This document shows positions 13,073 to 56,719 of a DNA stretch of 64,000 nt, one piece after another. Where the stretch lies: positions 2,976 through 66,975 of the IMG/VR virus record IMGVR_UViG_2561511197_000003. One strand, written 5' to 3'. Position numbers and translations under genes: made by a program. This DNA is from a virus. Its lineage: Duplodnaviria; Caudoviricetes. The notes beneath the pieces were generated by a model, which saw only the letters and a list, made by a program, of their open reading frames with translations, made no database searches and was not told the origin of the DNA. The number at the start of each line of letters is the position of its first letter. The stretch's first letter is position 1.

Positions 13073-13149
13073 TGGGACAAAAGAGCGGATTCGAACCGCT
13101 GACCTCCGGAAATGGCAATCCGGTATTCTACCACTGAACTACAATCGTC
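13073..13149 (-). tRNA. Atypical tRNA-Gly(GCC)-like gene with 8-nt anticodon loop and encoded CCA
   Basis: D arm GTTC-AGTGGTA-GAAT; anticodon arm CCGGA-TTGCCATT-TCCGG; T arm AGCGG-TTCGAAT-CCGCT. Acceptor stem has two U-U mismatches. Confidence 0.65.
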
Positions 13150-13223
13150 ATCCACCTCCCGTTTCGCGGAGTCGTCTCGCGCTTCGTTCGCCCATCGACT
13201 GGGCTTCTCGTTCTAAAAATGTG

Positions 13224-13310
13224 CGGGCGATGAAGGGCTCGAACCTCCGACCTCACGTTTGGGGTGGCTGACTTCCCAAACATGCGCTCTACCATCTGAG
13301 CTAAACTCCC
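13224..13310 (-). tRNA. tRNA-like gene (GGG anticodon) with a 14-nt insertion at position 37/38
   Basis: D arm GCTC-AGATGGTA-GAGC and T arm GGAGG-TTCGAGC-CCTTC are canonical. The anticodon arm is 31 nt instead of 17. Confidence 0.65.
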
Positions 13311-13585
13311 AGTTTGCCAGCCCACCAGCAGAGCTATCCCTACCGGGTCTGGCTCCAGAAGCTACAGGCTCTGCGAACAGATCTGCACTACTGCCGGGCG
13401 TCTGGCTCGCCCCCCTTTCGGGCACGGGTTATCGTTTTCGCATAAACAGTAGGGGCCAGAGTCCAGCCCCGTGTTCGAGTATGCTTTATACAAAAATGAA
13501 AAGGCTAGGTTTGGCTGTCGAACAAGTGTGTCTTTGCCTTTTCCTCGTGCTTCAGTTTCCGCTCCGGATCGACAACCAAACTTTG

Positions 13586-13658
13586 TAGCGGGAGCGTGAC
13601 TCGAACACGCGACCTCTGGGTTATGAGCCCAGCGAGCTACCGACTGCTCCATCCCGCC
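13586..13658 (-). tRNA. tRNA-Met(CAT), initiator-like
   Basis: Complete cloverleaf GGCGGGA...TCCCGCT-A with anticodon arm CTGGG-CTCATAA-CCCAG (three G-C pairs) and A11-U24. It has G1-U72 rather than C1xA72. Confidence 0.92.
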
Positions 13659-15385: not shown

Positions 15386-15528
15386 CCTACTCGTTTTGCC
15401 AATCCTACCACCTGATAATGGCCCACAGTTATCATGATAATTTTACTATTTTATGTTATCAAATAATTATACTTTTTAAAGAATATTAGCCTTTGTAAGC
15501 CTTTTTTATTGCATCTTTCTAATAGCCT

Positions 15529-15561
15529 ATTGCTTTATGTCCCACATGGGACATACCTTTG
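15529..15561 (+). promoter_or_regulatory. Bacteroidota sigma-A-type promoter with overlapping palindromic operator
   Basis: -7 box TACCTTTG (15554-15561, consensus TAnnTTTG), upstream TTG and an AT-rich tract. Perfect inverted repeat ATGTCCCA-CA-TGGGACAT at 15537-15554. Confidence 0.75.
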
Positions 15562-15812: not shown

Positions 15813-15814
15813 TG

Positions 15815-15899
15815 AGCGACTGTAATGCAGCTAGAAAAGTAGAATTCTACTTTCTCTAACGGTCTCAAGCCCGAACCAAATGCAGATGAGAAGTCAGCT
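15815..15899 (+). ncRNA. Twister ribozyme (type P1)
   Basis: P1 GACT/AGTC; TAATGCAGC; P3 hairpin; CGGTCTCAAGCCCG (P4/L4); TGCA-GA; pseudoknot TCTC/GAGA. Predicted cut at 15823/15824. Confidence 0.88.
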
Positions 15900-15927: not shown

Positions 15928-16167
15928 ATGAAACAGACATTCGGACAGTGGCAGAATACGGTCGATATGGAAGTCCGTAGCCACTTAGGAACTCAGGCCT
16001 CATGCATAGGCATCTACACCTATGGCTACAATGACGTAGCAAAACGCAATGACCTTGCCCCTCACCCGATGGGGGAGCCTGACCAAGCCCACAAAAAGGG
16101 CATTCAGGCAAAGCAATACGCCGTTCATATCGCCACTGTACTGATAAACGCCTGTTGGTGCAACTAG
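15928..16167 (+). CDS. First early protein, hypothetical
   Basis: ATG at 15928 (MKQTFGQW), just after the ribozyme. Confidence 0.6.
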   Translation: MKQTFGQWQNTVDMEVRSHLGTQASCIGIYTYGYNDVAKRNDLAPHPMGEPDQAHKKGIQAKQYAVHIATVLINACWCN

Positions 16168-16169
16168 CT

Positions 16170-16316
16170 ATGACTGGAAGGCAAGCCATCGAAAAGATAC
16201 AGGCTCTGACTGGCTGTATCGTCTACAACCTTCTACCCGCTGACGAAGCGGGTTTTGTGTATCTGTACACGACCAATGATTACGAAACATTCAGACTAAT
16301 TGACCTAAAGCCATGA
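16170..16316 (+). CDS. 48-aa hypothetical protein (below the ORF-track cutoff)
   Basis: MTGRQAIEKIQALTGC...LIDLKP; ATGA overlap with the next gene. Confidence 0.6.
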   Translation: MTGRQAIEKIQALTGCIVYNLLPADEAGFVYLYTTNDYETFRLIDLKP

Positions 16317-16585
16317 TTTCAACCAACACAAACAACGTTTCTGTCACTGCTCAATGTAGCGTCTTTACCGTAGACGGTGATAGCTATTTCGGGACAGCCC
16401 ACTATCTGGTAGCCGGTCAGCACATCATCGTATTAGGCCACCACGTAGAAACCAACAGCGATTGGGAAGGCGATGAAGCCAACAAGGACGAACCGCTGTT
16501 CGAGGCACTACTGAAAGAAGTAACGACCCTGAAACGCCCGATTGTGGGTGTTCTGCCAGCCAGCCGAGTGGATTTCGGCCAATAA
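16313..16585 (+). CDS. Hypothetical early protein
   Basis: ATGA-coupled ORF. Confidence 0.65.
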   Translation: MISTNTNNVSVTAQCSVFTVDGDSYFGTAHYLVAGQHIIVLGHHVETNSDWEGDEANKDEPLFEALLKEVTTLKRPIVGVLPASRVDFGQ

Positions 16586-16609: not shown

Positions 16610-16930
16610 ATGAGCACAAACACAACGTTCGACCACGCTTCACATTGGAAAGAGGTCGAAGCTAAAACCACTACCCTTACCCCTCACCAGCAAAGTTGGA
16701 TACAGAGCATAGTCGGCAAACTAAGCGCTGAACAGGTAAGCGCCGAAAACTACACCACAGAGCGGGCAGAATACGAGTTAAAGCCCTGCGTTGCAGGTGG
16801 TAAGCTGATAATGGTGTTACATGAACATGAAGACTTGATAAAAGCGTGCCTGATGCCGGAAGCCTACTTCGAGCAGCGTCGGCAAATGGAGGCTAACGCG
16901 CTACCTACCATCACTATAATATCTGCCTGA
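16610..16930 (+). CDS. Hypothetical early protein
   Basis: Its TGA stop lies inside the hammerhead core. Confidence 0.65.
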   Translation: MSTNTTFDHASHWKEVEAKTTTLTPHQQSWIQSIVGKLSAEQVSAENYTTERAEYELKPCVAGGKLIMVLHEHEDLIKACLMPEAYFEQRRQMEANALPTITIISA

Positions 16931-16976
16931 CGATGATACCCGGCACGTATCGAAACGCCCGATTGGGCGTCGCAGA
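16922..16976 (+). ncRNA. Hammerhead ribozyme (type I)
   Basis: Stem I TCTGC/GCAGA; core CTGACGA(T); stem II GATAC/GTATC; GAAA; stem III ACGCCC/GGGCGT. GTC triplet with predicted cut after 16971. Confidence 0.92.
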
Positions 16977-17009
16977 AGCCAAACGTTTAACTAAAACATA
17001 ACAATTATC

Positions 17010-17441
17010 ATGTTTTACCTCAACTCGAAAGTAAAGCCCCTGAGCGGCGACGACCAAGCCCTGTACGAGAATGCTGTTGCCAATGTGGACTCTATCGCGC
17101 GCCACACGTACACAAAACGCGAATCAAGTGCCATATCGGCGATTTACCACAAGTACGTGGACAGGGTAAAACCAGCGTTATATGCGTCCTACGTGAAGAA
17201 CCAGCGGTATCTGGATAATAAGCGGCCAACGGGCGCACAGGCAATGCACGCGCTGTTAACTGCCTATTTGTACTTCGTGAACCAAGGGAACTGCACCGAT
17301 GAAGACATGAGCACCCTCCTGTGGTCTGAGTGGGAGTCTGTTGAAGAAAGGCGGGAATTGTTACGGGCGATGTACGAGTACCAACCCACGATTCACCCAC
17401 TTGACCTTAGTCAAACACTCACCACCTGCGAACCCGTCTAG
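17010..17441 (+). CDS. Hypothetical early protein
   Basis: ORF with A-rich leader. Confidence 0.7.
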   Translation: MFYLNSKVKPLSGDDQALYENAVANVDSIARHTYTKRESSAISAIYHKYVDRVKPALYASYVKNQRYLDNKRPTGAQAMHALLTAYLYFVNQGNCTDEDMSTLLWSEWESVEERRELLRAMYEYQPTIHPLDLSQTLTTCEPV

Positions 17442-17474: not shown

Positions 17475-17506
17475 GGGCCTGCTAGTCATAGCAGGCCCTT
17501 CTTTTT
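17475..17506 (+). terminator. Intrinsic terminator
   Basis: GGGCCTGCTA-GTCA-TAGCAGGCCC followed by TTCTTTTT. Confidence 0.75.
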
Positions 17507-22823: not shown

Positions 22824-24038
22824 ATGAGCCAACTCGACTTATTCACGCCTGCCCTTACCGATGGTGAATTGCCACCCGTTGCCCTGACGCCCGAAATTGA
22901 ATCGTTGCTGGCCAAGAATGCCCCCGTAGCGATTGGGGTAAGTGGTGGCAAGGATTCAGGCGCTGCGGTTTGGGCTGTGGTCAACCACCTCAACCAGATC
23001 GGCCACACCGGCCCGCGCCTGCTGATTCACGCCGATCTTGGCCGAATCGAGTGGGCGGATTCGCTGCCGATCTGTCAGCAACTGGCCGATCTGTTTGGGC
23101 TGGAACTGGTCGTTGTGCGTCGGCCTGCTGGTGGCATGGTGGAGCGGTGGATGAGTCGATGGGATGGCAATTGCACCCGTTATGCCGATCTGGCCTGCGT
23201 CAAACTGATTATGCCGTGGTCAAGCCCAGCCAATCGGTTCTGCACATCGGAGTTGAAAACGGCGATCATCAGCCGTGAACTGACCCGCCGCTTTCCCGGC
23301 CAGCGCATTGTGTCGGTGTCAGGGATTCGTCGGCAGGAAAGCAGTAAGCGCGCGCAAAAGCCCATCTGTTCCGAGCAAGCTCGACTGACAGTAAAAACGC
23401 TGGGTACGTCGGGCGTAGACTGGAATGCCATTATCGAGTGGAAGCTGGACCACGTATGGAACTGCCACAAGTGGCACAACCTGCCCATCCACGAGGCTTA
23501 CAGTACCTACAATATGACGCGGGTAAGCTGCTGCTTCTGCATCATGTCGTCCCTGCCCGATCTGCTGCGGTCAGCGGGCTGCGAAGCCAATCAGGACGTA
23601 TACCGCGAACTGGTCGATCTGGAAATTGCCTCGACCTACGCCTTCCACGAAGATACCTGGCTTGGCGACGTGGCCCCGCACCTGCTGACCGATGAACAAC
23701 GAACAGCCCTGAGTGGAGCCAAATACGCCGCTCGTCGGCGTGAACTGGCCGAATCCCGCATTCCTGAACATCTACTCTTTACGGAAGGCTGGCCAACGCG
23801 GATGCCCACCTACGACGAGGCGGTACTGCTGGCTGAGGTTCGGCAGGAAGTAGCCGACACGGTGGGCCTGACTATCGGTTTCACCGACCCGGCCTCTATC
23901 CTGCAACGCTACGCCGAATTGATGGCCGAGCGGGCTGAAAAGCAATTCTTAGCCGACTGGACCGAAGCCAAACGCGAGTTAAAAGCCCTGAACAAACGAC
24001 TCAAAGAAGCTTATGAAGAAGCCAATCAAACAGTATAA
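22824..24038 (+). CDS. PAPS-reductase-family (PP-loop, Fe-S) protein
   Basis: Motifs VSGGKDS, RFCTSELK, GIRRQESSKRA and RVSCCFC; N-terminal QLDLF. Confidence 0.85.
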   Translation: MSQLDLFTPALTDGELPPVALTPEIESLLAKNAPVAIGVSGGKDSGAAVWAVVNHLNQIGHTGPRLLIHADLGRIEWADSLPICQQLADLFGLELVVVRRPAGGMVERWMSRWDGNCTRYADLACVKLIMPWSSPANRFCTSELKTAIISRELTRRFPGQRIVSVSGIRRQESSKRAQKPICSEQARLTVKTLGTSGVDWNAIIEWKLDHVWNCHKWHNLPIHEAYSTYNMTRVSCCFCIMSSLPDLLRSAGCEANQDVYRELVDLEIASTYAFHEDTWLGDVAPHLLTDEQRTALSGAKYAARRRELAESRIPEHLLFTEGWPTRMPTYDEAVLLAEVRQEVADTVGLTIGFTDPASILQRYAELMAERAEKQFLADWTEAKRELKALNKRLKEAYEEANQTV

Positions 24039-26026: not shown

Positions 26027-26794
26027 ATGACGTTTTTTCAACAACTCGCCGCCCTGAATCTGGTCGGCACCCTCAATTTTTCGGTAACGAAAGTGGGCGA
26101 CAAGATGACCGTATCGGTTCGGCTCGATAACCCATCCTGCGGCGATGCCGCGCGCAATCAGATTCGGCCCCTTACGTCCACTGGCACCCCTGTTGAACTT
26201 GATGCCGGTTGGTTTGACGCGATCACCAAGCCGATGCAATCCGCATCGGGATTGATGGTCGATATGGAAACCCATCAGAAGTCACTCGACAAAGCGCGGC
26301 AGGATTCAGCGATGAATAAGTCGAACGGCACCAAATCGACTACGCCTACCCCTGCCTCAAGTGCAGCTAGTACCCCTGCCAAACCGACCACGACGGTAAT
26401 CTCCGCTGTCGATAAAAAGACGCAGGTGTACATGGATGCCATGCAGAAGGTCGATAAGCTACGGGAGGAAGGCCGGTACATGGACGCGCTGTCCGAGTTG
26501 CCCAAGAGTAAGGATTACCCCAACAACAAGATTCTGGAAAAGCGACGTACCTGGCTGGCTAATATGGCAATGGGCGGGGTGCTGATTCCTGATCCGTGGC
26601 CGATTGATCCCGCCACCGAGAAACCCGCTGCGGCAACAGCAACGCCCGAAACTCCGGCACCAGCACCAGCCCCCACCGTCGAGGCCGGGCCAGTGGCGAC
26701 CGATAATCCGGCAGATGCGCCTGACGAGTCAGCCGACGACGACAAAGAGCCGGAGGAAAATCTGGACTCACCCCTTGTCGAAGAAACCATTTAA
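26027..26794 (+). CDS. PRTRC system protein E
   Basis: MTFFQQL...PLTSTGTPVELDAGWFDAITKP with a low-complexity tail; first gene of the cassette. Confidence 0.85.
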   Translation: MTFFQQLAALNLVGTLNFSVTKVGDKMTVSVRLDNPSCGDAARNQIRPLTSTGTPVELDAGWFDAITKPMQSASGLMVDMETHQKSLDKARQDSAMNKSNGTKSTTPTPASSAASTPAKPTTTVISAVDKKTQVYMDAMQKVDKLREEGRYMDALSELPKSKDYPNNKILEKRRTWLANMAMGGVLIPDPWPIDPATEKPAAATATPETPAPAPAPTVEAGPVATDNPADAPDESADDDKEPEENLDSPLVEETI

Positions 26795-26818
26795 TCACCT
26801 TTTTTTCAACGCAAAGCG

Positions 26819-27037
26819 ATGTTAGTAAACACTGATTTAGTCCGAAAATTTGAGTTCAAAAAGAACAACGAAACGATTGTAATCGACGACCCCAACCCTG
26901 ATTTGAGTACCGGGGCCGTGCAGAACCATTTGGCTGGGCAATACCCCGAACTGCTCACCGCCAAGCTCAAAGGGCCGGAAATTAAGAATGACGCCTTTGT
27001 CTACACGTTTGAAACGACAATGGGTACCAAAGGCTAA
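26819..27037 (+). CDS. PRTRC system protein C (ubiquitin-like)
   Basis: DPNPDLS...YPELLTA...GTKG C-terminus. Confidence 0.9.
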   Translation: MLVNTDLVRKFEFKKNNETIVIDDPNPDLSTGAVQNHLAGQYPELLTAKLKGPEIKNDAFVYTFETTMGTKG

Positions 27038-27150
27038 TTGCCCCTGACTAATCAACCCTGATTGAAACCAATGAAACGCAGCCAAAAAGCGGCAGCGCGG
27101 ACACCCGCAGCGGGTGTCCGCGTGATTGCCCAAAAACCCGACTATACAGT

Positions 27151-28344
27151 ATGCGCACTGCACAATCACCTCGGCGATCTACTCGCTCGGTTCAACCAAC
27201 TTCAGGACGCCGCCACCGTCAATCGCCTGCACCCCCAGTCCCAACCATTAGACCTGCTGGCCCCGCCTTTCTGACGCAGCCCATTTTACCTATCCAGTTC
27301 CAATCAGATCGCATTCAGGATAGTTATGGCCGGTTTTACAAGAAGTCCGGTCCAGACGATCAGGCCAAAGAGGTCGCCGAATATTATGCTTCACTGGATC
27401 ATCTGGCTAGCCTATATAACTTTCAACCGCGCAACTGTCGGGATATGGCTTACCCGATGAATATCGGATTGAGCTTTATAGCGGCTCGTCAGCAGCTAAA
27501 AGCGATCAAACCTGACCTGACGCTAGTACTGGTGGCTCAATCTTACAAAGACGAAAAAAAGTACCGTGCCACATTGGCTACGGTGCAGGCAGAAGATACA
27601 GATATATCGCTCTACAACGTACCGGTTCGCCCCTACCAACGCATGATCGGAGATCGGCGGCAACGTCAGCGATTGAGATTACTAGACAGCCTGTTTGCCT
27701 TTCTGTATCGCCGGGTTGCCTTCCCATATTGTGGGCCTGACGACTCAAGCTACTTTGATGACATACTAAGCTATACCATCGACGAAGATGGGATATATGC
27801 ATCAGAGCGCGACGCTGAGGAAGAATACGGTGATCACTACAAAGCGGCGAAGCGTAAAGTTTTCGATATACGTCGGCTGTGTTTACAGAGCAAGAAGCGC
27901 TTCAATCATGAGTATCACGTACAGCAACTCAGTCAACGGGTCAATTCATTCAAACCAAAATCAGAGCTTGATCAAGACCTCTTGATCGCCGCTCAGAAAC
28001 TGGTGGAAGTTGAGTGTCATTTCCCGCACCATTCGTTTAAGATGGCAACTGACAACCACCATCTTGAGATTAAAGACCGGGCGGAGGGTACCATTTTCGT
28101 TGATCAAATTGCAACATTCGTCTGGTCAGATAACGACGAATTCTATAGCCTTTACACGCAGTTTCTCGATGACGAGATGAGTAGTGGCTGTGATCAGGAA
28201 CCACTGCAATCTGTACAGGTCTTTGACTCACCGCAAGCCAAAGACATCCACGCTGACTATCAAGAATATTACCAACTACTGCTGGACGCCGTCGGCGATC
28301 TAGGTGCAGTACTATCCCGAATGGATCATGGAAAATGTGAATAA
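27151..28344 (+). CDS. PRTRC cassette protein (protein F position)
   Basis: 397 aa between proteins C and B; start uncertain. Confidence 0.6.
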   Translation: MRTAQSPRRSTRSVQPTSGRRHRQSPAPPVPTIRPAGPAFLTQPILPIQFQSDRIQDSYGRFYKKSGPDDQAKEVAEYYASLDHLASLYNFQPRNCRDMAYPMNIGLSFIAARQQLKAIKPDLTLVLVAQSYKDEKKYRATLATVQAEDTDISLYNVPVRPYQRMIGDRRQRQRLRLLDSLFAFLYRRVAFPYCGPDDSSYFDDILSYTIDEDGIYASERDAEEEYGDHYKAAKRKVFDIRRLCLQSKKRFNHEYHVQQLSQRVNSFKPKSELDQDLLIAAQKLVEVECHFPHHSFKMATDNHHLEIKDRAEGTIFVDQIATFVWSDNDEFYSLYTQFLDDEMSSGCDQEPLQSVQVFDSPQAKDIHADYQEYYQLLLDAVGDLGAVLSRMDHGKCE

Positions 28345-29074
28345 ACTGTTTCTGGATTTCGCTATCCCCAAATTTATCCTGTTGTTCTACCAGCAGCCGA
28401 ATAGCTACCAACAAGATCAAGACGATGACGGATCATTCTATGTCGAATCCTGCGACATAGACCCTGTAACGGGTCTGATGAGGAATCACCACCCACTGGC
28501 TGTGGAAGAATCGCAGGCACTGGGCAAACGTCTGAACGCCTCGCATGACCGAATTACCGGCTTTCTGCTGCCCAAAGGGCTTTTGCCAGAAAACGTATTG
28601 TACCTAAACCCACGCGGGGAAGGGAAAGTAATCTGGTACACCAAACCGGGGAAACGTACCCTGTATTTTAGCGATTATCGTAAAATTAAGGATGGAACAG
28701 CCCATGTACCTGGGCTACTTTGGTGCGCTACTGCCACCACCTTGCGTCTATTCGCCCTCAAGCCGGGTGTTGTCGAAGGCCGACCGGCCTCTAACACCCA
28801 GTTATACTACGCCCCCTTTTACAATACAAATTCGGCTGGGGAAGTGTGCCAGGGCGATGTTGACATCGACGTGACGGGGGAGTCTACGCTTGAGGATTTT
28901 ATCACAGGATGGGAGCGGTTTTACTTCGATAGTCGCTTTTCCCACCTGAGTGGCAATCTACCCATTAAAGGGAATCTGGATGAACTGTGGAACAGCCTGA
29001 TCGGTACAGAAACGCCATTCCCCCACGACTTAATGATCTCGACGAAACTCACACTAAAAGACCTACTGGCATGA
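28328..29074 (+). CDS. PRTRC system protein B (prokaryotic E2 family D)
   Basis: LLPENVL, VIWYT, VPGLLW, LYYAPFYN...VCQG, WERFYFDSRFSH. Confidence 0.88.
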   Translation: MENVNKLFLDFAIPKFILLFYQQPNSYQQDQDDDGSFYVESCDIDPVTGLMRNHHPLAVEESQALGKRLNASHDRITGFLLPKGLLPENVLYLNPRGEGKVIWYTKPGKRTLYFSDYRKIKDGTAHVPGLLWCATATTLRLFALKPGVVEGRPASNTQLYYAPFYNTNSAGEVCQGDVDIDVTGESTLEDFITGWERFYFDSRFSHLSGNLPIKGNLDELWNSLIGTETPFPHDLMISTKLTLKDLLA

Positions 29075-29862
29075 CTTCGGTACATCTTACTGCTAAATAC
29101 CTGATTAGCCCTCAAAACCCCATTACAGTCAACCTTATCGGCGCTGGCGGCACCGGTAGTCAGGTGTTGACTGCACTGGCCCGAATGAATGTAGCCATGC
29201 TGGCGCTTGGCCACCCCGGTCTGTATGTATGTGTATGGGACCACGATACGGTCAGTCGCGCCAACATGGGCCGACAGTTGTTTGCTCAGTGCGAGGTTGG
29301 CCAGCACAAGGCGGTAGCTCTGATTAACCGCACAAACCGGTTTTTCGGCACCAATTGGAAAGCGATTGCTCACAAGTACGAGAAGGCTAATTTATGGCAA
29401 AGCCCCTTCGCGCATGGGTCGGCGAATGTGACCATTAGCTGCGTCGATACTGTGGCTGCCCGTTTCCAGATTGCCGATACGCTCAAAACCCTTAACGTTC
29501 ATGAGGACCACCGCGACCGCCCCTATTACTGGATGGATTTTGGGAATAGCCTCACCAGCGGGCAGGTCATGCTCTCAACTGTTGGCAAGCACAAGCAACC
29601 GGACTCCAAGAAATTCAAGACGGTAGCGCATCTTCCGTTCATCACCGACGAGTACGCCGACGCGCTGCGGAACACAGTCGAGACAAACGAACCCTCCTGC
29701 TCACTGGCCGAAGCCTTGGAGCGCCAGGATTTATTCATCAACCCGACGCTGGCGCAAATGGGCTGCAAACTGCTGTGGAACCTGTTTCGGGAAGGTATGA
29801 CACCCAACCGGGGTTTCTTCCTGAATCTGGCTGACTTCCGCTCGATGCCCTTGCCGGTATGA
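29071..29862 (+). CDS. PRTRC system ThiF/E1-like protein
   Basis: IGAGGTGS, DHDTVSRANMGRQ, CVD, DFGN, PSCSLAEALERQDLFIN. Confidence 0.92.
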   Translation: MTSVHLTAKYLISPQNPITVNLIGAGGTGSQVLTALARMNVAMLALGHPGLYVCVWDHDTVSRANMGRQLFAQCEVGQHKAVALINRTNRFFGTNWKAIAHKYEKANLWQSPFAHGSANVTISCVDTVAARFQIADTLKTLNVHEDHRDRPYYWMDFGNSLTSGQVMLSTVGKHKQPDSKKFKTVAHLPFITDEYADALRNTVETNEPSCSLAEALERQDLFINPTLAQMGCKLLWNLFREGMTPNRGFFLNLADFRSMPLPV

Positions 29863-34656: not shown

Positions 34657-37600
34657 TTAATCGTTTGTCAGCTGGCCACGGACCACGCGGGTCACTGTGC
34701 TAGGCAGGCCTACCCACTTCGAGACAAAATCAGTCGATTTTCGCACGAACGTATCCCCCGCCTGAGCGGCTTTCTTCTCATCCTCTTCGGTCATGTACCG
34801 GCCTGCTGCCAGCACCGCATCGACGCCCTGCTGCATGTTCGACAGACTGGGCACCTCGTACAGCTGCTCATTGCCACCAACACCATCGACCTTATTGATG
34901 GCGTACTCGACGAACAACGTACCCAGCCCGGGGAACGTACCTGACACGTTACGCAGCGAGTCGAACATCACGCGTTCGGTCAGCTTATCGGCTTCGGGCG
35001 GTTCCCCACCCGACAGCATGGCCATGATCACCGACGTACCCGCCGACACGGCGCCGACGTACACGGCGTTGGCCAGCACTCCGTAGCCCAGCGTCTGCAG
35101 GAGTTTGGCGCGCGCGGCTTTGGCCTCCGGCGTTCCCGGTGTGGCCTTCGTGTAGCCGATCATCGCCCGAATCACCAGCCCCGCAATTTTCTGCTGCTGG
35201 CTGCTGTACATGCCCAGCATTCGGGTAAAGAACTGCTCGGAGAGTTGCATCGGGGTACGTTCGGCCAGCGAATCCGTGTTATAGGTTTCGCTTACCACCC
35301 GCTCGGTCAGGTGGGCCACCCGATCCCACCACGCATCGCTGTTCTGCTGTAGCCCTTCGGCCGAGGCCTGCAGCTGCGCCGCCTGCACGTAATACAGGAT
35401 GGGCGCCCGGTCAGCCCGGCGCATGGCCGACATAAGGCGTTCCCCCGCGAAACTGTCGTACTTCCTGAGCAGCTTCTGCGCGTTGCTGAGCGTCGCGCTG
35501 TTGAGGCCCAAATCGTCAAAACTGACGTCACCGACGTGCTGCTGATTGGAGTCGAGTAGCCGGTTGATTACCGCGCCGAAGCGCCGTAGCTGCTTGGCCT
35601 TGGCCGCTTCGTCCATGCCCTGACCCAGCAACGCCTCGATGTAGGGCCGCTCGACTGTATCGCTCTCACTAATCAGCCCACCGTGAAGCCCCTGATCGGA
35701 GCCGTCGGCGCGTACCGACGCCCCTACACCCGCATCGCGGTATGCCCCGGCGGTTAGCTTGGCCAGCAGGCCCAGCGCCTGCGGATCGCGCAAATGCTGA
35801 TCCTCAATAATGCCCTGCCCCATCGCCGAGGCGGCCGTGCCCAGCTGTTTGGCAGGCAGGCCCAGGTTGAGCGAGAAAATCGAATTCGTGAACCGGCGCA
35901 TACCCCGCTCGACGCTCGTCAGGCCGGGGTTGTCCTGCCGAACCCGCATCATGCGCTCCCGGTAGCCACGCAGTACTTCGTATTCGCGCGTCAGGTAGCC
36001 CACCAGTCGCGCTTTCTGCGGCCCCTGGTACTTGTTTTCGATGGCGTCGCGCAGGTGCATGACGTTTTCCGACAACCGACCGTATTCCAGCAGATCAGCG
36101 ACCTCCTGTTCGTAGCGGATCATCGTTTGCAGCGGGTTGCCCAGCACGATGCCCTTCGCTTCACGCGACCGCGCAATCAACCGGCCCGACTTATCGTAGA
36201 GCTTCATGCGGCCCTGCGCCTCAGCGCGCGCGTTGGCATCCCCGCCCGTCACCCGAATGGGGTAATAGAACGTCTGGCGGGGCCGGTTTGCCGCCCGTCT
36301 GGCCCGGTTCTCGTCGCGCCGGTCGCGGGCTTCCGCCAGCCACTCCTGCGCGCCGGGCGCCAACGCCGGGTCGATGCCGGCACCCGCTTCGGCAGGCTCG
36401 ATGAGTCGAGGTGATTTACCACCGGTACGTTCGCCTACCCGCTCGAAGGGTTCGCCCGGTTTGAGCGCATTGTTTTCTTCTTCGAGCAGATCCGCTACCT
36501 CGTTGACGTTGAAAAACGAAATCAGCGCCTCGTAGCCTTCCACCTCCCCGGTTTTGGCGTCGTTACCCTCCACAAAGCGCGACAGCAGGCGATTGTATTC
36601 CGCCCGGGGTAACATCAACGTGTCGAGCCGATCGCGCGCGGCATCGTAATACTGGCCACCGTGGTCGAGTTTTTTCGACAACGTACCATCGGCATCGCGC
36701 TCGTAGAGTTCATTGGGACGCGGCTCAGCGTCGAACACGTGAGTTATGCCACCCGTGGGTGACGACCCCTGCTGGGTTTCAGCCAACGCAACCGCTTCCA
36801 TCACCGTCAGGAGCGGCACCTGCTTTTCGACCAGCACCACCTCACCCGTATTGGGATTGAAGTCATACGACTGCACCCCGATCAGCTGCTCCTCGAAGGG
36901 AGCCAGTAGCCGGGCGGCCGTAGAAAGCCGGTCCTGCAGGTACGTTTTCGCCGTACCCGCGCGACGTGATCCTTCGAGCTGCGGTTCATGGATCAGGCGT
37001 TTGATGCTGCCCTTCGTGTCGTCGATCAGATCGGCGAACGTAATCAGGTTGGTCCACGACTTGAGCCAGTCTGAGACAAAGTTGGTCAGCCGACCAACGT
37101 ACCCAGTATCATCACTGCGCTGGCCAAAGCCTGTACTCACTGCATTGGCCAGCGTTGCCTGATCAAGCGTCAGCACCTGCCCGTTCGCCAGATGGTAATG
37201 CGTCTGCGGATGGGTATAGGTGAGCTTTTGGGGTGAGGTCAACTCAAAGCCCGTCTGCTCGGCGATCTGTTTGATGTACGACTTATCGGCGTCGGTGTAG
37301 TTGACGGGGGACATTTCCCATAAATCGCGCGAAACAGCCGGTTGCTTCAGCCCCTGCACGGTGAGTTGCGTATTGGTCACCGGCGGGTTGCGCAGCTGCT
37401 GCTCGGCCACCGATAGCAGGTTGGCCAGCGTCGTGGGTTCGGCCCCCAGCACACTGTTGGCAGACGGGGCGGTCGGCTCAAGGGTCGAGGGGGCCGGATC
37501 AGGCGCCAACTGGAATTGGGGTACGTTGCTGGGGGGCGCAGGCTGAGCGCGATTACCCGGCCCTTCCATCAACCCCAACACCTGCCCGGCCCAACGCGCC

Positions 37601-40600
37601 AGCTTCGCATCGGCTAGTTTCTCATTCGAGGTCCAGCCGATCGCTTTTCCAATTTTGGCAAACAGTTCGTCGAGCCACAGCCGGAACGCCGATTTACGGC
37701 CCGACACTTTAAACTGTTCGCCCTTGTCGCCGATCGCCGTTTCGAGCGCTTCGATTTCCAGTTCGGGAGTGGACAGCGTTTTGTAATAGCTGTCGGTACG
37801 CAACCGGGCGAAGTAGCCTGAATCGCGCACCAGCGCCACGCCTTTGGTGTACAGATCGGGAAACTTGGTTCGCGCCGCTTCGGCCCACAGGCCGCCGAAC
37901 TCGTGAAAGACGGAATTCAGGTTTGCCTCGGGCGAGAAATACACCTTGCCCTGCCAGCGGAAGGCGAGCGGTCGACGAGTGGCAAGGCGAGCCCTGTCTG
38001 CTGGCTGCAGTCGGCTCAGGCTTTCCTGCAAGGCCTGCCCGTACGCGGCCGGATCGGTGATGGCGTCCACGCCGAAGGCCTGCGCCAGTCGCGCGACAGC
38101 CTGCCCAATGGGGGCAGTTGACCGGGCAGGTACGTTCCCCTGCTCGGGAGCCAGTTGGAAAAACGGGCTATCCGGCTCGGCAAACGGGTTGGAGGTATCG
38201 CCCAGCGAGTCCATCATGCTAGCCAGCCCGGCATCTTCCTGCGTGGCCGACGTACCTGGCGCGGTCAGGCCCGTAACCTGCTGGTAAAACTGCGCGGCTT
38301 TTTCGGCGGTCTGGAACTGGAAACCGGGGATGGCTCCTGATCCCTGAAACCGCGAGTAGTAGCCGCCCAGCGACTTGGCCTTATCCAGCGCGGCGTTGTA
38401 CTGCTCAGTACTGAGCCGCCCGTTAATGGGCACCACGAACGTGTCCCGTTGATTTTTGGCGTGAAACCCTTTGACGGGTTCTTTCAACGGTGCGTTTTCC
38501 GCTGTAACAGAGGAAGCCGCAGCGGTCTGCGGTGCAACAACCGGGACGGCAGCAGCAGCCTGAGCTGCTGGCTGGGCGACTGGCTGCGCTGGCAGTACCG
38601 ACGAGCGCGTTGATAAATCCACCCGCCCAGCATTTACCCGCTGTACGTCGGCTGAGGTGATCGTTGGCCGTTCAGGCACCTCGATCGTTTCCAACTCATC
38701 AAACAGTTCATTGATGTCTTTGACGTCGCGCAGATCAATTTCTTCCACCGACCCCGGATTGGCATCAGGCTGCAATTTATCAAGCACCAGCACCTGCGTG
38801 TTGACTGCCGTACCCGCCCGCCCGAACGTACTGCCGGGCAACAATATGCGCGCTGTCAAATGAACACTACTGGTAAGACGCCCCAGTTTTGGGGGCGTAT
38901 TCACTTCCTCCAACCACTTGTCAAACTTAGTATTGAAGGCGCCGACTGGTACCAGTGCCACCACCCGGCTACCGACGACCGAGTGTTGCTCAATCGCCTT
39001 TTTGACGTGCTCCAGTGCCGTTTTACCGGCCTGCCCATACGGCGGGTTCATGACCGTGACCTGGTACTTGTTCACCGGGTTATGATCCTCGTAAGCCTCG
39101 TTGAGCTTACGGCCATCGGTCACCAGCGATACTTTACTGAACAGTTCCGACGACGGTTCAATGACCGTTAGACTGGCATCTTCCGGCACCCAGCGGGCAA
39201 TGGCACCGTGGCCAGCCGAAGGCTCGTTTACGCGGTCGCCTGTTTTGATGTTACCCCACTCGACCATCTTCATGCCCAGCGGTTCAGGCGTGGCAAAGTA
39301 ATCGACGCCTTCGTAGGCTTTGGTTTTGGCGGTACGTTTGAGTTGTGCGAAGTAGTAGGTTTTTGCCTGATCCCACGGCGAAATCGGCTTGGTGAAACTG
39401 CGGTCAAATGCCTTACCGCCCGTACCATCCTTCTCAGAGGGTACGTACTCGGTGGTTGCCTCGAAGCCTTCAATGAACGCCTGCTTCAACCCACGGGCCA
39501 TTTCACCCATGCCCAAATTCTCAGCGGTACCGGCCCGGCCAGCAATCGTATCAGCAAAAGCCCGACGCTCCCAGTTGGTGCCCGTATTGAAATACACGAA
39601 CATACTGTTGGAGTCGGGATGCTGGCCAGTCCGGTAAATGCGCCCTTCCTGTTGAATCGAGCGGGTCGGTTGCGTGGGCAGGCCTAGGTTCACCAGCACG
39701 CGCGGATGCCTACCCGTCGTATCGTGGCCCGACCAACCCGCGTTGGCCGCCGCATTGACCAGAATGATGTTGGCCTCGGGCTTGGTGTCGTCGTTGAAGT
39801 TTTTGACGGTGGCGGTTTTAGCCGTTTTGCTCATGCCTCCCTTTAGGCGAGCCGCCTGCGGGAAGGCTTCGCCCAACGTGTCAAGGGGTGCCCCGTAATC
39901 AGCGGCGTTGATCGCGTAGAGGTCCGGTCGACGTTCGTAGAACTCCCGAATCAGCGTGCGAATCGAAATCGATTTTTGGCTACCATACGGGCCAGTCATT
40001 ACGTTGCCTTCGGGCAAATCGCCGTTTTCATTTTCGAAATGGAACGGCGCAAAGCCGCCCCCTTCCGTGTAATCGTAGAACACGACGACTTTCTTACCCT
40101 GATCCAGCCACTGTTGGATGTACGGTATGGCTTCCTTGGCCTTAATGGCTTCCAGTAACCGCTGGCGCTGAAGGTAATTGAACCGCTTTTCCAGCAGATC
40201 GATTAGCCCCGTATACCGCTTGTTATCGCCTTCCCGAACGAAGGCCAAACCCTCGTCGATCAACGTACCCACAGCTGACGGGGTGAGCGCAAACAAACGC
40301 TGATAGTCTGAATCAATATCCAGTACGCGGGCGCTGGCCACGCCTTCTTTTTGAAGCCAACCGTTGAAATTGCGCTCCATCAGCGACACGTCGACCGACA
40401 CATCGGGCTGCGTCAGGCGGTTATACCGCATCCGGTAGCCGAAATGCTGCACCATGAAGGCCTCATAGCCCGAGGGTACGTTGTAGGCGGTACTGTCGGA
40501 TTTTCCGTAGCTGAACAAATAGCCATTGGCCCACTGGATTGTTTCGCGGTAGGCAAAGGGCGTGGCCGATAGAAACACCGCGCGCGGACGGACGGCGCCC

Positions 40601-43600
40601 TGATTTTCTTTAATCAGGGCTTCATTCGCCTCCAGGTAGTTGTCCCACTCCCGTTCTTTCAGCGATCGTTCCTCGGAGAGTGCATCCAGTTCGGGTTTTA
40701 ACAGTTCCCGTTGATAAGCCGTATCCCGGCTTCTGAACTGGTCGTCAATCTCTCTGATGCGGGCCCGAATTTCGGAGAGCCGGGCAAACAACTCTTCGTG
40801 CTCCACCATCGTCCGATTCCAGGCCGAATCAGGGTGATAGGTATGCACCTGAAACGCTTTTAGGGCACCGGTCACGTCGGCCGACGACGACTGCATGAGG
40901 TTGTGCGCTTCATCGGCCAGCAGCAGATCAAACCTACGGGTAGCCAGCGCGTTATTACCGGCAAAATTGGCGTAGGTCGTTACATTGATCCCCGACCCGG
41001 CATCTTTCATGTCGTCGAGCGCGCGAATGGTCAGCCCCAGCGCAGGTGCTGACATGACCCACTCGTTCATTACGCTGACATTGGGCACGATCACCAGTGC
41101 GCTGGTTTTACCCTGCTTGGCAAAGCGTTTGATGATGCCCAGCCCCAAGAAGGTCTTGCCGGTGCCGGTGCCGTTGGTAAACAGCACTCCGTACCCGTCG
41201 GGCTTGGACAATCGCGCTTCGGCAAACTGCACATCTTCGCGCTGGCCATCCATCAGGTAGGGCAACGTGGCGTCAATGTTTGCGCGGTTGCCAACGACAA
41301 CCTCAATGGATTCGGCCTGCTGCTGAAGGGCTAGCTTTTCTGCACGAGTAAGTGAACGGCCTTCCTGAGCAGCTGCGATAGCTCGCTGCTCTCCGAGTCG
41401 GTCAGGCTGAATTCCTGCGTCGCCAAGCGCAGGGCTTCCGCTACGGTCGTCACTTCGGGCAGTGCTGTCCGCAGGGAATAAGCTTCCGAACTCGTTATAA
41501 ATTGGGTTAGCGCGTGATGTTCTACCAGTAGCGGCAGGATCTGCTGATACGCGCTGATCACCCGGGCGCTGTGTCCCTGACTCGTCAACCAGTCGGATTC
41601 CTTCGCCAACGCCTGGCTCAAGGCTTCCGGCGTCGGCTGGTTGAACATCGTTAGTGCCCACTGGCTGAGTAGTGGTTGTTCGTGGGCTATCTGGTTCCAC
41701 ACGGTTAGCGGTACCTGCGTCATTGGGTTGTGTATTTACATCATCAAGGGTAACGGCCCGCACCGTGCGACCGTCATCCATTTTATCAAACGTATCGTCG
41801 TCGACGGTGTTCTGGTAGGCACCGTAAACAGATTTCAGCGCCGCCAAGTCGTTTTCGGTCACCGGGCCCTGCAGTTTCACAAAGTCCCGAACCACCGCCG
41901 TAAACTTGTGTACACCCTGCTGAAATTTCACCGACAGGTATTCGGCACCGAGGGCCAGAAGCTCGGGGTCGGCAAACGGATTGCTCGACAGATTGCCCCG
42001 CATCTGACGCAGCTTTTCCTTTAACCGGGCGGCCAGATCAGCCTCACGCTGGGCCAGTTCGTCGAGTTTATTGACGGGGGCTGGCGTGTCGGTTTGAGCC
42101 GGAAGTGAGTCAGTAGTCGCGTTTTGTGGGACAGAATTGCCATTTACTGCGACAGTTGACCCGTTTTCTGCAACAGATGACCCAAACAGCGCGGTTTGTT
42201 GCGTGCTGGCGGCAACGGCCTGCTCGATCGCGCGCAGCTTATTGGCCTGGGCGGTTTTCTGCCGCTCGACGAGTGCTGCGCGCTGCTGTTTGGCCCGATC
42301 AATCGCCTGACGGGCGGCAGCTTCCGCCTCCAGTCCGGTGGTGTTACCAGCAAACAGATCAGATTGGGTCGCAGCTTTGGGATCGGCCGCAAACAGATCA
42401 CCCGTCTGCAGCCGGTTGCGGTTTTCGCGTTCAAGCCGGGCAATGGTGCGGTCGGCTGCATCGATCTCGCGTTGCAGGTTCGCCAGTTCAATGTCGAAGG
42501 GAGCCGTGGCCTCGGCCGTGCGCGGATCAACTACCGCCTCAGCCGCAATGGCTTCGTCAATTTCTTGGAGCAACGTGGCCGCCTGTAACCCGATGTCGGC
42601 GAGTTGTTCCTGCTGATCAGCCGGGCTTTCGTTCCTCGATTCCTGCGCACTAAGGGGCAGATACGAGGCAGTAGCGATCCGGCGATTACCCGCTTGGTCT
42701 GTGTATGCATACGAAAAGCCAGGAAGGTTCTTAGCTGAATACGCCGTAGCTACTTTACTACCCGGACTATCTTCCTTAATCTCATAGAAACCGGCCGCTT
42801 CCCAATTACCATCAACCAGTATTTCGGAAACAATACCAACGACACGCCCAGTCTTGCGTGTTTTTACACTACTGACAACGTACCGCTGTTCCTCATCAAC
42901 TTGAAATAGATCGCCTTTCTGAACCGTGGCTAGCAACCAATTAGCAATAGTTGGCCCATCATTGGTTGCAACGACGTCCTCATAACTGCTTTGTGTTGTT
43001 ACTGTCGGCTGATCACTTGGCGCGACCGAGTTAGTTTCGTTAACTAGGGTGTCTGTTCCGGCGCTTGGTTGTCCGACGGCTTCGGCAGCATTTTCGAGGT
43101 CCGCGACCGCAGACTCAAGAGCGACGAGAGTTTGTCCGACGGTGGTACCGCCCCCGGCCCCTGACTCAGTCGGGCTGTTAGTAAGGCCTCCGTCAGCTGC
43201 TGGCGCGGGCTTTTGTTGTTGGATGGCTTCATAGATGGGAAGAACACCGGCATGGCCAACGGCCAGATCGGATAAGAAACGGTTAAGTAAAACTAAACGT
43301 TCGGGCGTGTAACCCATTAATCCTGAGTTCACGAATGAGTAAACGGCAGAAAACTCATCCAGCAACGGGGCTAGATCGTAGCCCGCCTGCGAGTCCCAGT
43401 AACCCAGCGTGCGCATTTCTTTGAGCAGCGCCTCGACTTCCTCATCGGAATAGCCGTTGACCAGGTCGAGTACGTCGCGGGTTTCGGCGGCCAGCAGATC
43501 GGGGTTTTCCTGCCATTGGGCCGCTACCTCGGGGTCGAGTTCAGCCAGCACGTCGGCCTGCATCTGGGCCGCCGCCTCATCGGCCGCGCCTTCGTCGGCA

Positions 43601-46600
43601 TACTCCCGCAGTTGCTTACTCGGGGTGTTATCGCCCTGAAAGCTTACCACCATATCAATCAACTGCTGCTCCAACTCGTCGGGGCGAGTGTCCAGATCAC
43701 GGCCAGCGGCCTCCCACAGCGAGGTGGCAATTTGATCGATACCCGGTTGCCGGTTGCTTTGATCGATGTAGTTGATATAGACGTTACCTCCTTTGGGCCC
43801 AAGGCGCGCATTCTCACCAGCCATGCGGTCGAAATCGTTCCGGTTGATCTTGCCGCGCTGGGCAAAAAACTGCAATACCGCCCCCCGAAAATCGGTGGGT
43901 ACGAATGTTTTGGCAATGGACTGTTTGGGGCGTTTTAGCCGTTTTGCCGCGATGGCGCCACGGACTGCACCAGCAACACCCGGGTTAGCGGGTTGTTGTC
44001 CATCTGCTCCCTCATTCGCTGCAAGATCAGCTCCCGCTGCTGCACGCTCTCGCTCAAGCGCTTCGAGTAATCGCTCGTCGGGTCCTGCTGCGAGAGCAGC
44101 TGCTGCAAGGTCCGCTGCGTGTTGTGCATCGTCCTGTAGTTGCTCACCCGCCTGCGCGCGTTGTTGTAATCCAAGCGTTGATTGTACTGCGTCAACGTAT
44201 TGAGTAGCTGGGTCTGATGCGACCGGGTTAGCCGCCGGTACTGACCCGGTGGCTGCAGGTTGGGAAGTCGATACGACATTGATTAGTTGTCCGTTAGAAT
44301 CGGTGAACTGAAGGGTTGCTTTACGCTCGATTTTCCATTTATCGCCCTGCCGAACGAGCGTTCCCGGCTGGGTCGTTACCAAACCCGCCGCGCGGTCCAT
44401 GCCAGCCAGCGGGTAGGTGGCTCCATCCTGCAAATAGCTGTAGGGGTCGCTCAGGGCAAGCGCCGCCGCTTCTGGACGTACCTGGTACTCCGCCCTGTCT
44501 GCACCCGTTGGCGTGATCTGGTAAACACCCCGCTCGCTATCGGGCGTTAGATTACCGCTGCTGAAACCGTCGCCCAGATCGACCGACGAGGCGTACATAG
44601 ACGGGGTTGTCGCCGCTACCGGGCTACTCACCGGAACCGGGGTGGACGCAAGGGGCATTGTTGACACGCCGGGCAGGCCTTCGGCCAACAGATCGACATC
44701 GCCCCCCATCGGCTCAGCGGCCATCGGATCGACTGTAGTGGGGTCAGCCAGCAGCGGGGTCAGCCGGTCGGCCACTTCCATGAAGGGGGTCGCATACCGT
44801 TCGTTGGTGGCCAACACCGGGCCAGCCGCCGCCAGATACGCCGCCGCCAGCGCGCGCGTTTTGTCGAGGGCTTTCTTTTTACCCGGCGAGCGCGTCGCCC
44901 CCAACGTTTCCAGATCACCCACCAACTGCACGCCATCGGCCAGCAGGTTTCCCTCGACGCTGTTGTCAGGTTTGGTATAGCGACTCGTTTCGTAGCCGGG
45001 CTGGCCCGCCTGCACGCCGGTGGCCAACCGTACGTGCTCGTCGACGCTGGGCAGTGGATCGCCATACGACTGTTCGACGGGGTTGCGAACAGCCGGTACG
45101 TACGTGCCGGCATCGTCGAGGCGCGCCGGGCTGGTCACCTCCCCGCCCGTCTGCACCAGCGGCCGGTAGAGCCGCCCCTGCGGATCAGTCAGTACGACGG
45201 CGCCCGTTTGGGGGTCAGTCAGCTGACGGCTCGGTTTGAAGGTATCGGTATAGGTCGTATCGCCGTACTGCTGGGCGATAGCGCGCAGGGCATCCTGCGT
45301 GTAGGTACGTACCCCGGCCCGGCTCTCGGTGTCGGTCGCAAAGCGTTTGAGGGTTTCACCGACGACGTTCTCAATCGCGCTGCGGCGCGCGGCCATATCC
45401 AGTTCCGCCTGATAGACGGGACCACTGGGCGAATCGACGAGCCCACCCAGCTGCTTTTCGCCAGCGGCCAGTGCCATCTGCGCCTTGATCTGCTCGGCCA
45501 TCGTGGCGTCGGGACGGGCGACCTCGGCCGTCAGCTGCGCCTGGGTATTCTTTGCTTCATCGATCTGAGCCGCCTGCTGGGCGAGGCCTTCGCGCGCTTC
45601 TGACACGGCAAATAGTGTATACCGATCATTGTCGTTGTAGGTATCCACGTCAGCGAATTCAGCGGCCAGATTGGCCATGCGGGCCGCTTTCTGGACGAGG
45701 CCGGCGTGATCGTCGGGTGTCAGCTCCCCGCGCTGCAGTTTATCATCGAGCACACCCAGCAGCTTCAACCGGTTGGGGCTATCAGGGCGAATCAACTCGT
45801 CAGGCGATAACCCCCGCGCCAGCCCGTTTCTCACGTTGGCGCCAACGTACCCAAACAGAGTCGGCTCCATCGTTTTTTGCTGGAACGCCGCCCCCGGCAC
45901 GGTGCCGACCAACGTACCCAATATGGTGCCGTACACCGAATCAAAGGCGTACCGGCCAAAGCCCGGATCGTCGAAACGGCCCGTCGTATCGGCTGACTGC
46001 AGGTTGAGCATGATGTCTTTGGCTCCGTTCTCGACGATCGACTGCCAGAACTCCTCCCCGCCTTCGGGTATACCCTGTTCGACGAAACCACGCGCCACTC
46101 GCGCACCACCCCGACGCAGTCCTTCGGTCATTTGTACCCAGGCTTTAAGTTTGGCCGGGTTGCGCAGCAACTCCAGCGATCCTTTGGCGGCTTGCTCGGC
46201 GGTTTCGACCAGCGATTCCGCCGTGAGTTTGCTACCCGACCGAAGCAACGCCTCCACCGCTTCAGCCGTTGAGGCCTGCCGGATGGCAGAGCGGGCCGTT
46301 TGGGGCGCGACGCCCATGGCTTTGGCCAGCGCGCCCATATTGGCCGTTTCGATCAGCGCGTTAACCGCCGCCACCGGTAGCGCGTACAACGTGGCGTGCA
46401 TGGGGTCATAGCCCTGCTGCATCGCCTCCCGCTGGTACATGGGAAAGGTCTGCAGAAAGGCCGATGCGCTCGTTGCCCGGGTGGCCATCGACGCGGCCCC
46501 TTCGAGGGTATTGACGGCGAGCTGTCGTTCGGCCGCCGTCGCGGCCCCGCGCAGGGCCGCGCGGGCGCCACCGGTAGCCAGCGACGCCCCGCCCATGGTC

Positions 46601-56717: not shown

Positions 56718-56719
56718 GG

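Follow-up and report, generated by a model that had tools for sequence, protein, structure and literature searches.

Clustered hammerhead ribozymes that flank prophage genes have been described previously, and these were reported to cleave native transcripts of ~2 kilobases (kb) in vitro and, for one set, also in Escherichia coli (Perreault et al. 2011, PMC3088659). The open reading frames (ORFs) flanked by such hammerheads are characterized as 'small and non-conserved' (De la Pena 2017, PMC6155905), and bacterial self-cleaving ribozymes are described as occurring near each other and near phage genes (PMC6765202). For the ribozymes of the hammerhead, twister and related classes, which number in the hundreds in bacteria and phages, this literature presents the role as an open question (PMC6765202, PMC6155905). 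Here we describe a locus of this kind in a 64,000-nucleotide (nt) stretch of DNA (hereafter, the window) that corresponds to positions 2,976-66,975 of the IMG/VR record IMGVR_UViG_2561511197_000003, in a host genome of 6,937,263 bases. In the window, a twister motif and a hammerhead motif, ~1.1 kb apart, bracket four small ORFs, all on the plus strand (Table 1).

As in the clustered prophage hammerheads, which lie on the coding strand ~1-2 kb apart, bracket a short block of small, non-conserved genes within an integrated element and have been proposed to process long transcripts (Perreault et al. 2011, PMC3088659; De la Pena 2017, PMC6155905), the locus in the window combines two motifs, ~1.1 kb apart and both on the coding strand, with small ORFs that are not conserved, in an element that resembles a phage. 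It is a further case of the ribozyme-flanked prophage gene blocks, an arrangement that is itself already known. Unlike the described clusters, this locus has a twister as the upstream partner and an inserted U in the hammerhead, is known from sequence alone, and resides in an element that carries a PRTRC cassette and a homologue of the crAss-type muzzle protein. Within a complete genome, the locus forms a compact unit with clear bounds, consisting of a leader twister, four small genes, a hammerhead, one more gene and a terminator-like hairpin.

A type I hammerhead candidate at the end of a small orphan gene

The hammerhead candidate that separates ORF4 from ORF5 contains all conserved core positions according to the consensus in PMC3088659, from which our core criteria were taken, namely C3 U4 G5 A6 N7 G8 A9, G12 A13 A14, the A15.1-U16.1 pair and H17. 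Stem III begins at A15.1 (A16955) and ends at U16.1 (U16970), and the three-way junction is closed by the pairs G16972-C16926, G16935-C16951 and A16955-U16970, with no mispair adjoining the core and with both stem II and stem III capped. The candidate resembles the bacterial-type type I hammerheads, in which helix III is long, in its open stem I, 6-base-pair (bp) helix III and lack of a recognizable loop-loop contact. When segments of 71 and 136 nt that contain the site are folded, the minimum-energy structure is in each case exactly the hammerhead three-way junction.

The core is not free of inserted bases, as U16934 intervenes between A9 and G10.1. Natural hammerheads with one unpaired base at this position, the 5' end of stem II, are described in PMC4209133 and, for the CChMVd (+) hammerhead, in PMC1636495; the extra base in these sources is an A, which causes a moderate loss of rate. 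The motif in the window has the same single unpaired base at the same place; unlike in the CChMVd (+) hammerhead and the other extra-A hammerheads, however, the extra base is a U and would be found in a DNA-encoded messenger RNA (mRNA). The sequence-only reading of this DNA had proposed a complete type I hammerhead with one extra U between A9 and stem II, and both the anatomy and the coordinates proved correct.

Motifs of this quality are rare. A type I descriptor that required the core, allowed at most one inserted base after A9 and demanded stems of 4 bp or longer was run on both strands of the host genome, and the site in the window was the single match. Twelve chromosomes simulated with a first-order Markov model yielded 0, 1, 0, 0, 1, 0, 0, 0, 0, 1, 0 and 0 matches (mean 0.25, or ~0.0024 per 64 kb), and stems of at least 5/5/6 were reached in none of the 12. 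A crude pattern that consists of the core alone matches the window 7 times compared to 2.4 expected matches, and among these 7, only 16922-16976 passes the helix-requiring descriptors when these are run across the window. Descriptors for all three hammerhead topologies detected no further match within the window, and weak genome matches with long loops were taken as chance. Separately, the best genome match to the Rfam Hammerhead_1 model is located at G000:C1:4752105-4752148 (-) and scores 21.8 bits, below the cut-off of 34; it is not matched by the descriptor.

A twister candidate in the leader

The upstream motif is the only twister-P1 match in the genome, with E-values of 8.6e-5 in a search of 2.8 kb, 0.002 for the window and 5e-5 for the genome search. 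When the whole window was searched against Rfam at E<=1, only three transfer RNAs (tRNAs) and this twister were reported. Across the family, twister-P1 matches at E<=0.01 were found in 2 of the 151 genomes, this genome included; the other match, in genome G131, scores 25.5 bits and has no hammerhead within 1.5 kb.

The RF03160 alignment and the fold together delineate the helices P1 (GACU/AGUC), P2 (UGCA/UGCA), P3 (15832-15858) and P4 (CGG/CCG), and these nested helices are retained in the predicted folds, including that of a 2-kb segment. The candidate shares with type P1 twisters that contain P3 (RF03160; PMC6154101) the U-A site, which lies between P1 and P2 and is described in PMC6154101 as scissile, the order P1-P2-P3-P4, a loop L4 that ends in AAGC, and possible T1 and T2 contacts. 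In the description given in PMC6154101, the T1 pseudoknot joins L4 with L1, and T2 joins L4 with L2. In the window, T1 as CUC/GAG and T2 as GC/GC can be drawn by eye, with L1 shifted by one base from the Infernal alignment; judging by the bases involved, this T1 could be a doubly changed, compensated version of the consensus CCC/GGG. The longest reading of ORF1 starts at an in-frame ATG at 15880, inside the twister.

Table 1. Features of the ribozyme-bounded locus and of the element that contains it (window coordinates; aa, amino acids)
Feature	Position	Strand	Basis or remark
Promoter-like site CTGATA-18-GATAAT, candidate transcript start, in an AT-rich divergent intergenic region	15412-15441	+	9/12 hexamer matches
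Candidate twister ribozyme of type P1, including the optional P3 hairpin, located in the 5' leader	15819-15893	+	Rfam RF03160, full model 1-68
Predicted twister cleavage site U/A	15823/15824	+	RF03160 alignment places U15823-A15824 on the U-A of the family
ORF1, 80 aa from ATG 15928	15928-16167	+	no Pfam or PHROG family
ORF2, ATG 2 nt past the ORF1 stop	16170-16316	+	no Pfam or PHROG family
ORF3, ATG overlapping the ORF2 stop (ATGA)	16313-16585	+	no Pfam or PHROG family
ORF4, 106 aa	16610-16930	+	no Pfam or PHROG family
Candidate hammerhead ribozyme of type I, extra U16934 between A9 and G10.1	16922-16976	+	sequence, fold, descriptor
Hammerhead stem I, 5 bp, open	UCUGC 16922-16926 / GCAGA 16972-16976	+	sequence
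Hammerhead core C3-A9, CUGACGA	16927-16933	+	sequence
Extra U after A9	16934	+	sequence
Hammerhead stem II, 5 bp, 7-nt loop CCGGCAC	GAUAC 16935-16939 / GUAUC 16947-16951	+	sequence
G12-A14 (GAA)	16952-16954	+	sequence
Hammerhead stem III, 6 bp, loop GAUU	ACGCCC 16955-16960 / GGGCGU 16965-16970	+	sequence
Predicted hammerhead cleavage site, after C17 (C16971)	16971/16972	+	standard numbering, consensus as given in PMC3088659
ORF5, 143 aa, first gene on the 3' cleavage product, ATG 38 nt past the hammerhead cut	17010-17441	+	no Pfam or PHROG family
Terminator-like hairpin of 10 bp (7 of them G-C) with a T run after it, possible transcript end	17475-17498	+	motif scan
4,187-aa ORF with ResIII/Sno-type helicase	34657-47220	-	domain matches
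1,348-aa ORF, crassvirus muzzle protein homologue	52761-56807	-	PF25731, 114 bits, plus its C-terminal domain
Tyrosine integrase, Bacteroidota-type arm-binding and SAM-like domains, runs off the right end of the window	62627-64000	-	domain matches

Predicted processing of the transcript

We consider it probable, with some reserve, that both motifs are genuine self-cleaving ribozymes that cut a polycistronic, early-type transcript into three pieces. The twister in the 5' leader and the hammerhead between ORF4 and ORF5 would both be transcribed from the coding strand of a small-orphan-gene operon, and each would fold locally during transcription and cleave itself at the predicted site. The first piece would be a discarded leader. 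The second would be the ORF1-4 message of 1,148 nt, the distance between the two predicted cuts, which would retain both ribozymes, with a 5'-hydroxyl (5'-OH) in the folded twister and a 3' end that consists of the folded hammerhead and carries a 2',3'-cyclic phosphate. The third, which would begin with a 5'-OH and an A-rich leader devoid of structure, would be the message for ORF5. The two cuts, with four plus-strand ORFs between them, were already part of the sequence-only reading and stand as predicted; the end groups that it assigned to the middle piece follow from the chemistry of the two classes, provided that both ribozymes are active (PMC8782182).

The likely purpose of such processing would be to uncouple the stability and the translation of different parts of one polycistronic transcript. 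We infer that the ribozymes are active, that the genes are co-transcribed and that the fate of the pieces in RNA decay is affected: ends of this type should alter the access of end-dependent nucleases to the ORF1-4 message. The host has an RNase E/G homologue. The hammerhead cut is located 41 nt 3' of the ORF4 stop and, therefore, would leave the termination of ORF4 untouched.

ORF4 and ORF5 are orphans, each of which matches only itself among 5.8 billion proteins; the ESM Atlas provided no usable lead for ORF4, the model of which has a pLDDT of 0.40. The leader between 15445 and 15823 does not fold better than shuffled sequences (z -1.02). The divergent, AT-rich intergenic region that precedes the twister contains a perfect 18-nt palindrome, ATGTCCCACATGGGACAT, at 15538-15555, which could be an operator, and a second terminator-like hairpin (7 bp, followed by a T run) is found within ORF2, at 16235-16253 (+).

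Conservation of the locus in close relatives

Relatives that are ~90-95% identical to the locus were detected in two sequencing runs of one public study, X3 and X4, both of which consist of contigs and the RNA label of which is a guess. In one X3 contig, positions 15813-15831, which include the first 13 nt of the twister (15819-15831) with P1, the cleavage site and P2, are unchanged, and the alignment resumes at 16097. The X3 relative, ~92% identical, differs from the window in the ORF3 stretch: between 16288 and 16604, 315 letters are skipped and 496 unrelated letters are present instead, with the flanks alike on both sides. This replacement of ORF3 is a cassette swap inside the ribozyme-bounded block.

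Between 16604 and 17100, comparison with the X3 contig shows 29 changed and 9 inserted letters. Of the 17 ORF4 substitutions that precede an indel-rich patch, third codon positions account for 11 (binomial p=0.008), and 9 of the 17 leave the amino acid unchanged; this pattern shows that ORF4 is a real gene. In both X3 and X4, the insertions located just upstream of stem I (16903-16917) total nine letters, that is, three codons. In neither relative is a stop created, and the last two codons of ORF4 and the core TGA are unchanged (changes worked out by hand). Across hammerhead positions 16922-16940, a single change is listed for X3 and X4, from C16940, the first base of loop II, to G. The 5' half of the hammerhead is conserved despite the 9 inserted letters and 2 substitutions in the 15 nt directly upstream.

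Other searches for relatives came back empty within their respective scopes. A DNA search of phage records gave no match to the locus, nor did 11 other genomes of the genus, and the one 27-nt match among 60 related genomes was spurious. No match was obtained when viral contigs were scanned with the proteins of ORF4, a 244-aa ORF, the Erf-like gene and PRTRC_E as seeds; a pattern for the hammerhead 5' half had no match in viral contigs, and its 3 matches in the species-genome collection all lack stems I and III and were attributed to chance. Two metagenome scans likewise found no relatives, and a viral scan with a 30-nt stretch of ORF4 found none. In the metatranscriptome runs X1 and X2 (small share of words), nothing aligned to the locus, a result with no bearing on whether the locus is transcribed.

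The stop codon of ORF4 inside the hammerhead core

As the sequence-only reading had pointed out, the TGA of the ORF at 16610-16930 coincides with the UGA of the CUGA core, that is, the ORF4 stop at 16928-16930 is U4-G5-A6 of the hammerhead. The overlap is real, yet statistically unsurprising: any ORF that enters a CUGA core would be expected to be terminated in this way in about 1 of 3 reading frames. Therefore, the overlap by itself is no sign of coupling to translation. In the reading that we prefer, the position of the stop codon within the core is a consequence of the tight packing of the genes. A shallow literature search revealed no hammerhead/stop-codon overlap among the titles and abstracts listed, and absence from print is not claimed.

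The overlap nevertheless raises the question of whether cleavage is gated by translation, such that ribosomes finishing ORF4 would mask stem I together with the core and one half of stem II, the hammerhead would fold only on ribosome-free RNA, and cleavage, and with it the detachment of ORF5 from ORF1-4, would report the translation load of ORF4; we regard this as unlikely. Stem I plus CUGA make up the last three codons of ORF4, and a ribosome that reaches the stop has to open stem I, the core and a portion of stem II, so that occlusion as such is certain. The overlap and the frame are kept in both relatives despite the three codons inserted just upstream. Cleavage is irreversible, however, so that occlusion can merely delay it, and the expectation for the overlap is, as already stated, ~1/3 of the frames.

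Translation could also act through the upstream RNA. ORF4 can pair with the hammerhead 5' half (16877-16884 / 16924-16932) and with the loop II region (16835-16850 / 16942-16953), and a passing ribosome would undo this pairing. The competing pairing is, however, no stronger than that with shuffled upstream sequence, which results in an equal or lower hammerhead probability in 25% of 200 shuffles. Because shuffled sequences are disruptive to the same extent in this fraction of the trials, the riboswitch-like competitor fold was rejected as a designed switch.

The possibility of a circular message

Ribozyme-bounded circular RNAs, such as the retrozymes and viroid-like RNAs, are among the closest known systems in that, as predicted for the 1,148-nt piece, two ribozymes leave ends that can be ligated by RtcB on the RNA between them. 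The excised ORF1-4 RNA could, in principle, be ligated into a circular mRNA by the host RtcB or through the reverse reaction of the hammerhead, an outcome that we consider very improbable. Apart from the 5'-OH and 2',3'-cyclic phosphate ends expected from the class chemistry, this scenario is compatible with the presence in the host of RtcB (PF01139, 277.9 bits), which is encoded ~107 kb past the end of the window, and with the description of a type I hammerhead that retains the catalytic fold on the cyclic-phosphate product (PMC3088659). Furthermore, GCAG at 15827-15830 (bases 4-7 of the new 5' end) could pair with the CUGC of the freed stem I strand, a match noticed post hoc.

Other observations speak against circularization. 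The GCAG is separated from the 5'-OH by 3 nt and takes part in the twister P2 and T2, and a 4-base match easily arises by chance. The retrozymes and viroid-like RNAs join their ends by pairing and form circles, whereas no end-joining helix is predicted here: the predicted fold contains no pairs between the first 60 and the last 100 nt of the 1,148-nt piece. Co-folding of the terminal 80-mers gains 6 kcal/mol, a value that comes without a shuffle control, and the pairs are not between the very ends. For comparable arrangements, Perreault et al. report a search for products that were circular or spliced in which none was detected, with the data not shown (PMC3088659).

Moreover, both ribozymes would remain inside the piece. 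In Tornado, an engineered system for producing ribozyme-bounded, RtcB-ligatable circular RNA, the ribozymes are reportedly removed from the circle. No natural bacterial or phage ribozyme-bounded circles were found among the titles and abstracts listed in a shallow literature search, from which absence from print is not claimed. The fullest version of the scenario, in which the twister, the hammerhead and RtcB (or the reverse reaction) yield a circular, translatable phage mRNA, with terminating ribosomes timing the cut, is highly improbable; if it were true, the locus, in an integrated phage related to crAss phages, would be nature's equivalent of the systems engineered from ribozymes and RtcB to produce circular RNA. 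We rate the circular-mRNA and translation-timed readings as unlikely. The interpretation advanced in the sequence-only reading is, as a whole, supported in part.

Ribozymes in related genomes

A single-sequence model of the hammerhead (R1) was run on 150 other genomes. Of these, 16 contain a match at E<=1, and an intact hammerhead core was present in none of the 10 alignments obtained from 13 of the 18 candidate loci outside the window. The nearest of these candidates, in L066, was rejected given that it requires three inserted bases and a stem II mismatch.

PRTRC_E is encoded in 20 of the 401 genomes of the family, this one included, and up to 15 kb upstream of PRTRC_E was taken at 20 of the 23 other places where it occurs, resulting in a set of 258,635 bases to which the hammerhead descriptors were applied. 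For a set of this size, 0.09 relaxed and 0.005 strong hammerhead matches are expected by chance. At L055:6475-6530 (-) (G342:C4), in another genome of the same family, we identified a canonical type III hammerhead with stems of 6/4/7 bp, which is also the minimum-energy fold. This hammerhead occupies the leader of a small-ORF operon: the ATG of the first in a run of small ORFs follows it after 15 nt, and PRTRC_E, encoded on the same strand, follows after 5.5 kb. As an independent example in an element of the same kind, it counts toward the processing proposed for the window. Rfam does not report it at E<=5.

The small ORFs next to the L055 hammerhead are not homologous to those in the window. 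More generally, the PRTRC loci share with the window only the PAPS-reductase-like, Erf-like and clamp genes, each in 1-2 loci, and none of the small ORFs. At the gathering level, Rfam detected no ribozyme in the PRTRC loci that were fetched. Among other structured RNAs, the PRTRC elements of related genomes contain a match to group II intron domain 5/6 (62.1 and 55 bits) and one to DUF805b RNA (37.6 bits), the sites of the intron domain and DUF805b RNA matches being L052:3333-3411 (-) and L047:8334-8367 (+).

Evidence against ribozyme activity

Several observations weigh against cleavage of the transcript as proposed here. A first set concerns the hammerhead. When 121 nt were searched, the site aligned to the full RF00163 model with only 14.1 bits (E 0.8), compared to a gathering score of 34; at E<=10 in 2.8 kb, the Rfam hammerhead models gave no match at the site, and the site is absent from the whole-genome Rfam hammerhead matches, for which 150 of the 934 candidates were scored. 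The fold energies are no better than those of shuffled sequences (z -1.48 for 71 nt and -0.51 for 136 nt). The equilibrium probability of the full hammerhead fold (16 pairs) is 0.39-0.47 for the motif alone and at most 0.036 with at least 100 nt of upstream RNA, and the fold is lost in the 2-kb minimum-energy fold. The sole candidate for a tertiary contact between stems I and II is a 3-bp pairing, GGC 16942-16944 with GCC 16978-16980, which is often expected by chance, and no convincing contact of this kind was found when the sequence was read by eye.

The twister and the transcript are subject to comparable objections. Unlike the twisters that define RF03160, the candidate scores 33.6 bits against the gathering score of 67.2 (an unusually high cut-off) and has several conserved letters altered (GCU for GCC and UCUC for UCCC) along with one extra base in L1; in addition, P1 contains a G-A mismatch adjoining the cleavage site, and the fold energy is no better than that of shuffles (z -1.27). 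Promoter-like sites occur at the background level, with 3 in the region compared to 2.4 expected from shuffles, so that the candidate transcript start is a weak lead, and terminator-like sites are near the background as well (5 compared to 2.3). As for conservation, the listed changes in the relatives reach 16940, that is, they cover the 5' half of the hammerhead; 5 rows more exist, and 16941-16976 is outside the comparison. The phage, viral, metagenome and species-genome collections yielded no relatives from which covariation could be read.

Many of these observations would be expected if the hammerhead, the twister or both were inactive look-alikes or decayed relics, in which case the transcript would go unprocessed here. 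The scores of both motifs below the Rfam cut-offs, the inserted core base, the several departures of the twister and the lack of a tertiary contact are all in line with this possibility, and some of the hammerhead-like candidates published for prophages are reported to have proved inactive (PMC3088659). It is nevertheless difficult to reconcile with a chance expectation of ~0.0024 hammerheads per window, with the position of the hammerhead 1.1 kb from the only twister match in the genome and on the same strand, and with the intact state of all strictly conserved hammerhead positions and the conservation of the 5' half beside an indel-rich patch, and we consider it unlikely. The low Rfam score of the hammerhead results from the longer stems II and III, which are handled as insertions by the model. 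At E<=5, Rfam likewise overlooked the canonical type III hammerhead of L055, which shows that the weakness lies in the models, insensitive as they are to bacterial hammerheads of this sort, rather than in the motif. Rfam-based annotation misses elements of this kind, as illustrated by the 14-bit score of this hammerhead and the unreported type III hammerhead. Cleavage by two active ribozymes remains the reading that we prefer.

The element surrounding the operon

The operon belongs to a phage-like element that is integrated and contains small ORFs of the orphan type. Among the proteins encoded in the window are an Erf-like annealing protein, a sliding clamp, a PAPS-reductase-like protein and an RNase H-like protein. 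A PRTRC-type cassette, which includes PRTRC_E (147 bits), Prok-E2_D and ThiF, is located at 26027-29862 (+), and the PAPS-reductase-like gene is at 22824-24038 (+); both share the strand with the ribozyme-bearing operon. The muzzle protein homologue, the large helicase ORF and the integrase (Table 1) together suggest, on the strength of these homologies, an integrated phage related to crAss phages.

Three tRNA genes are located beside the operon, at 13073-13148 (-), 13223-13310 (-) and 13585-13658 (-). One of these has a four-base anticodon (gcca) and acceptor-stem mismatches according to ARAGORN, another is a tRNA-Pro(GGG) with an insert of ~16 nt in the region of the anticodon arm, and the third is a normal tRNA-Met.

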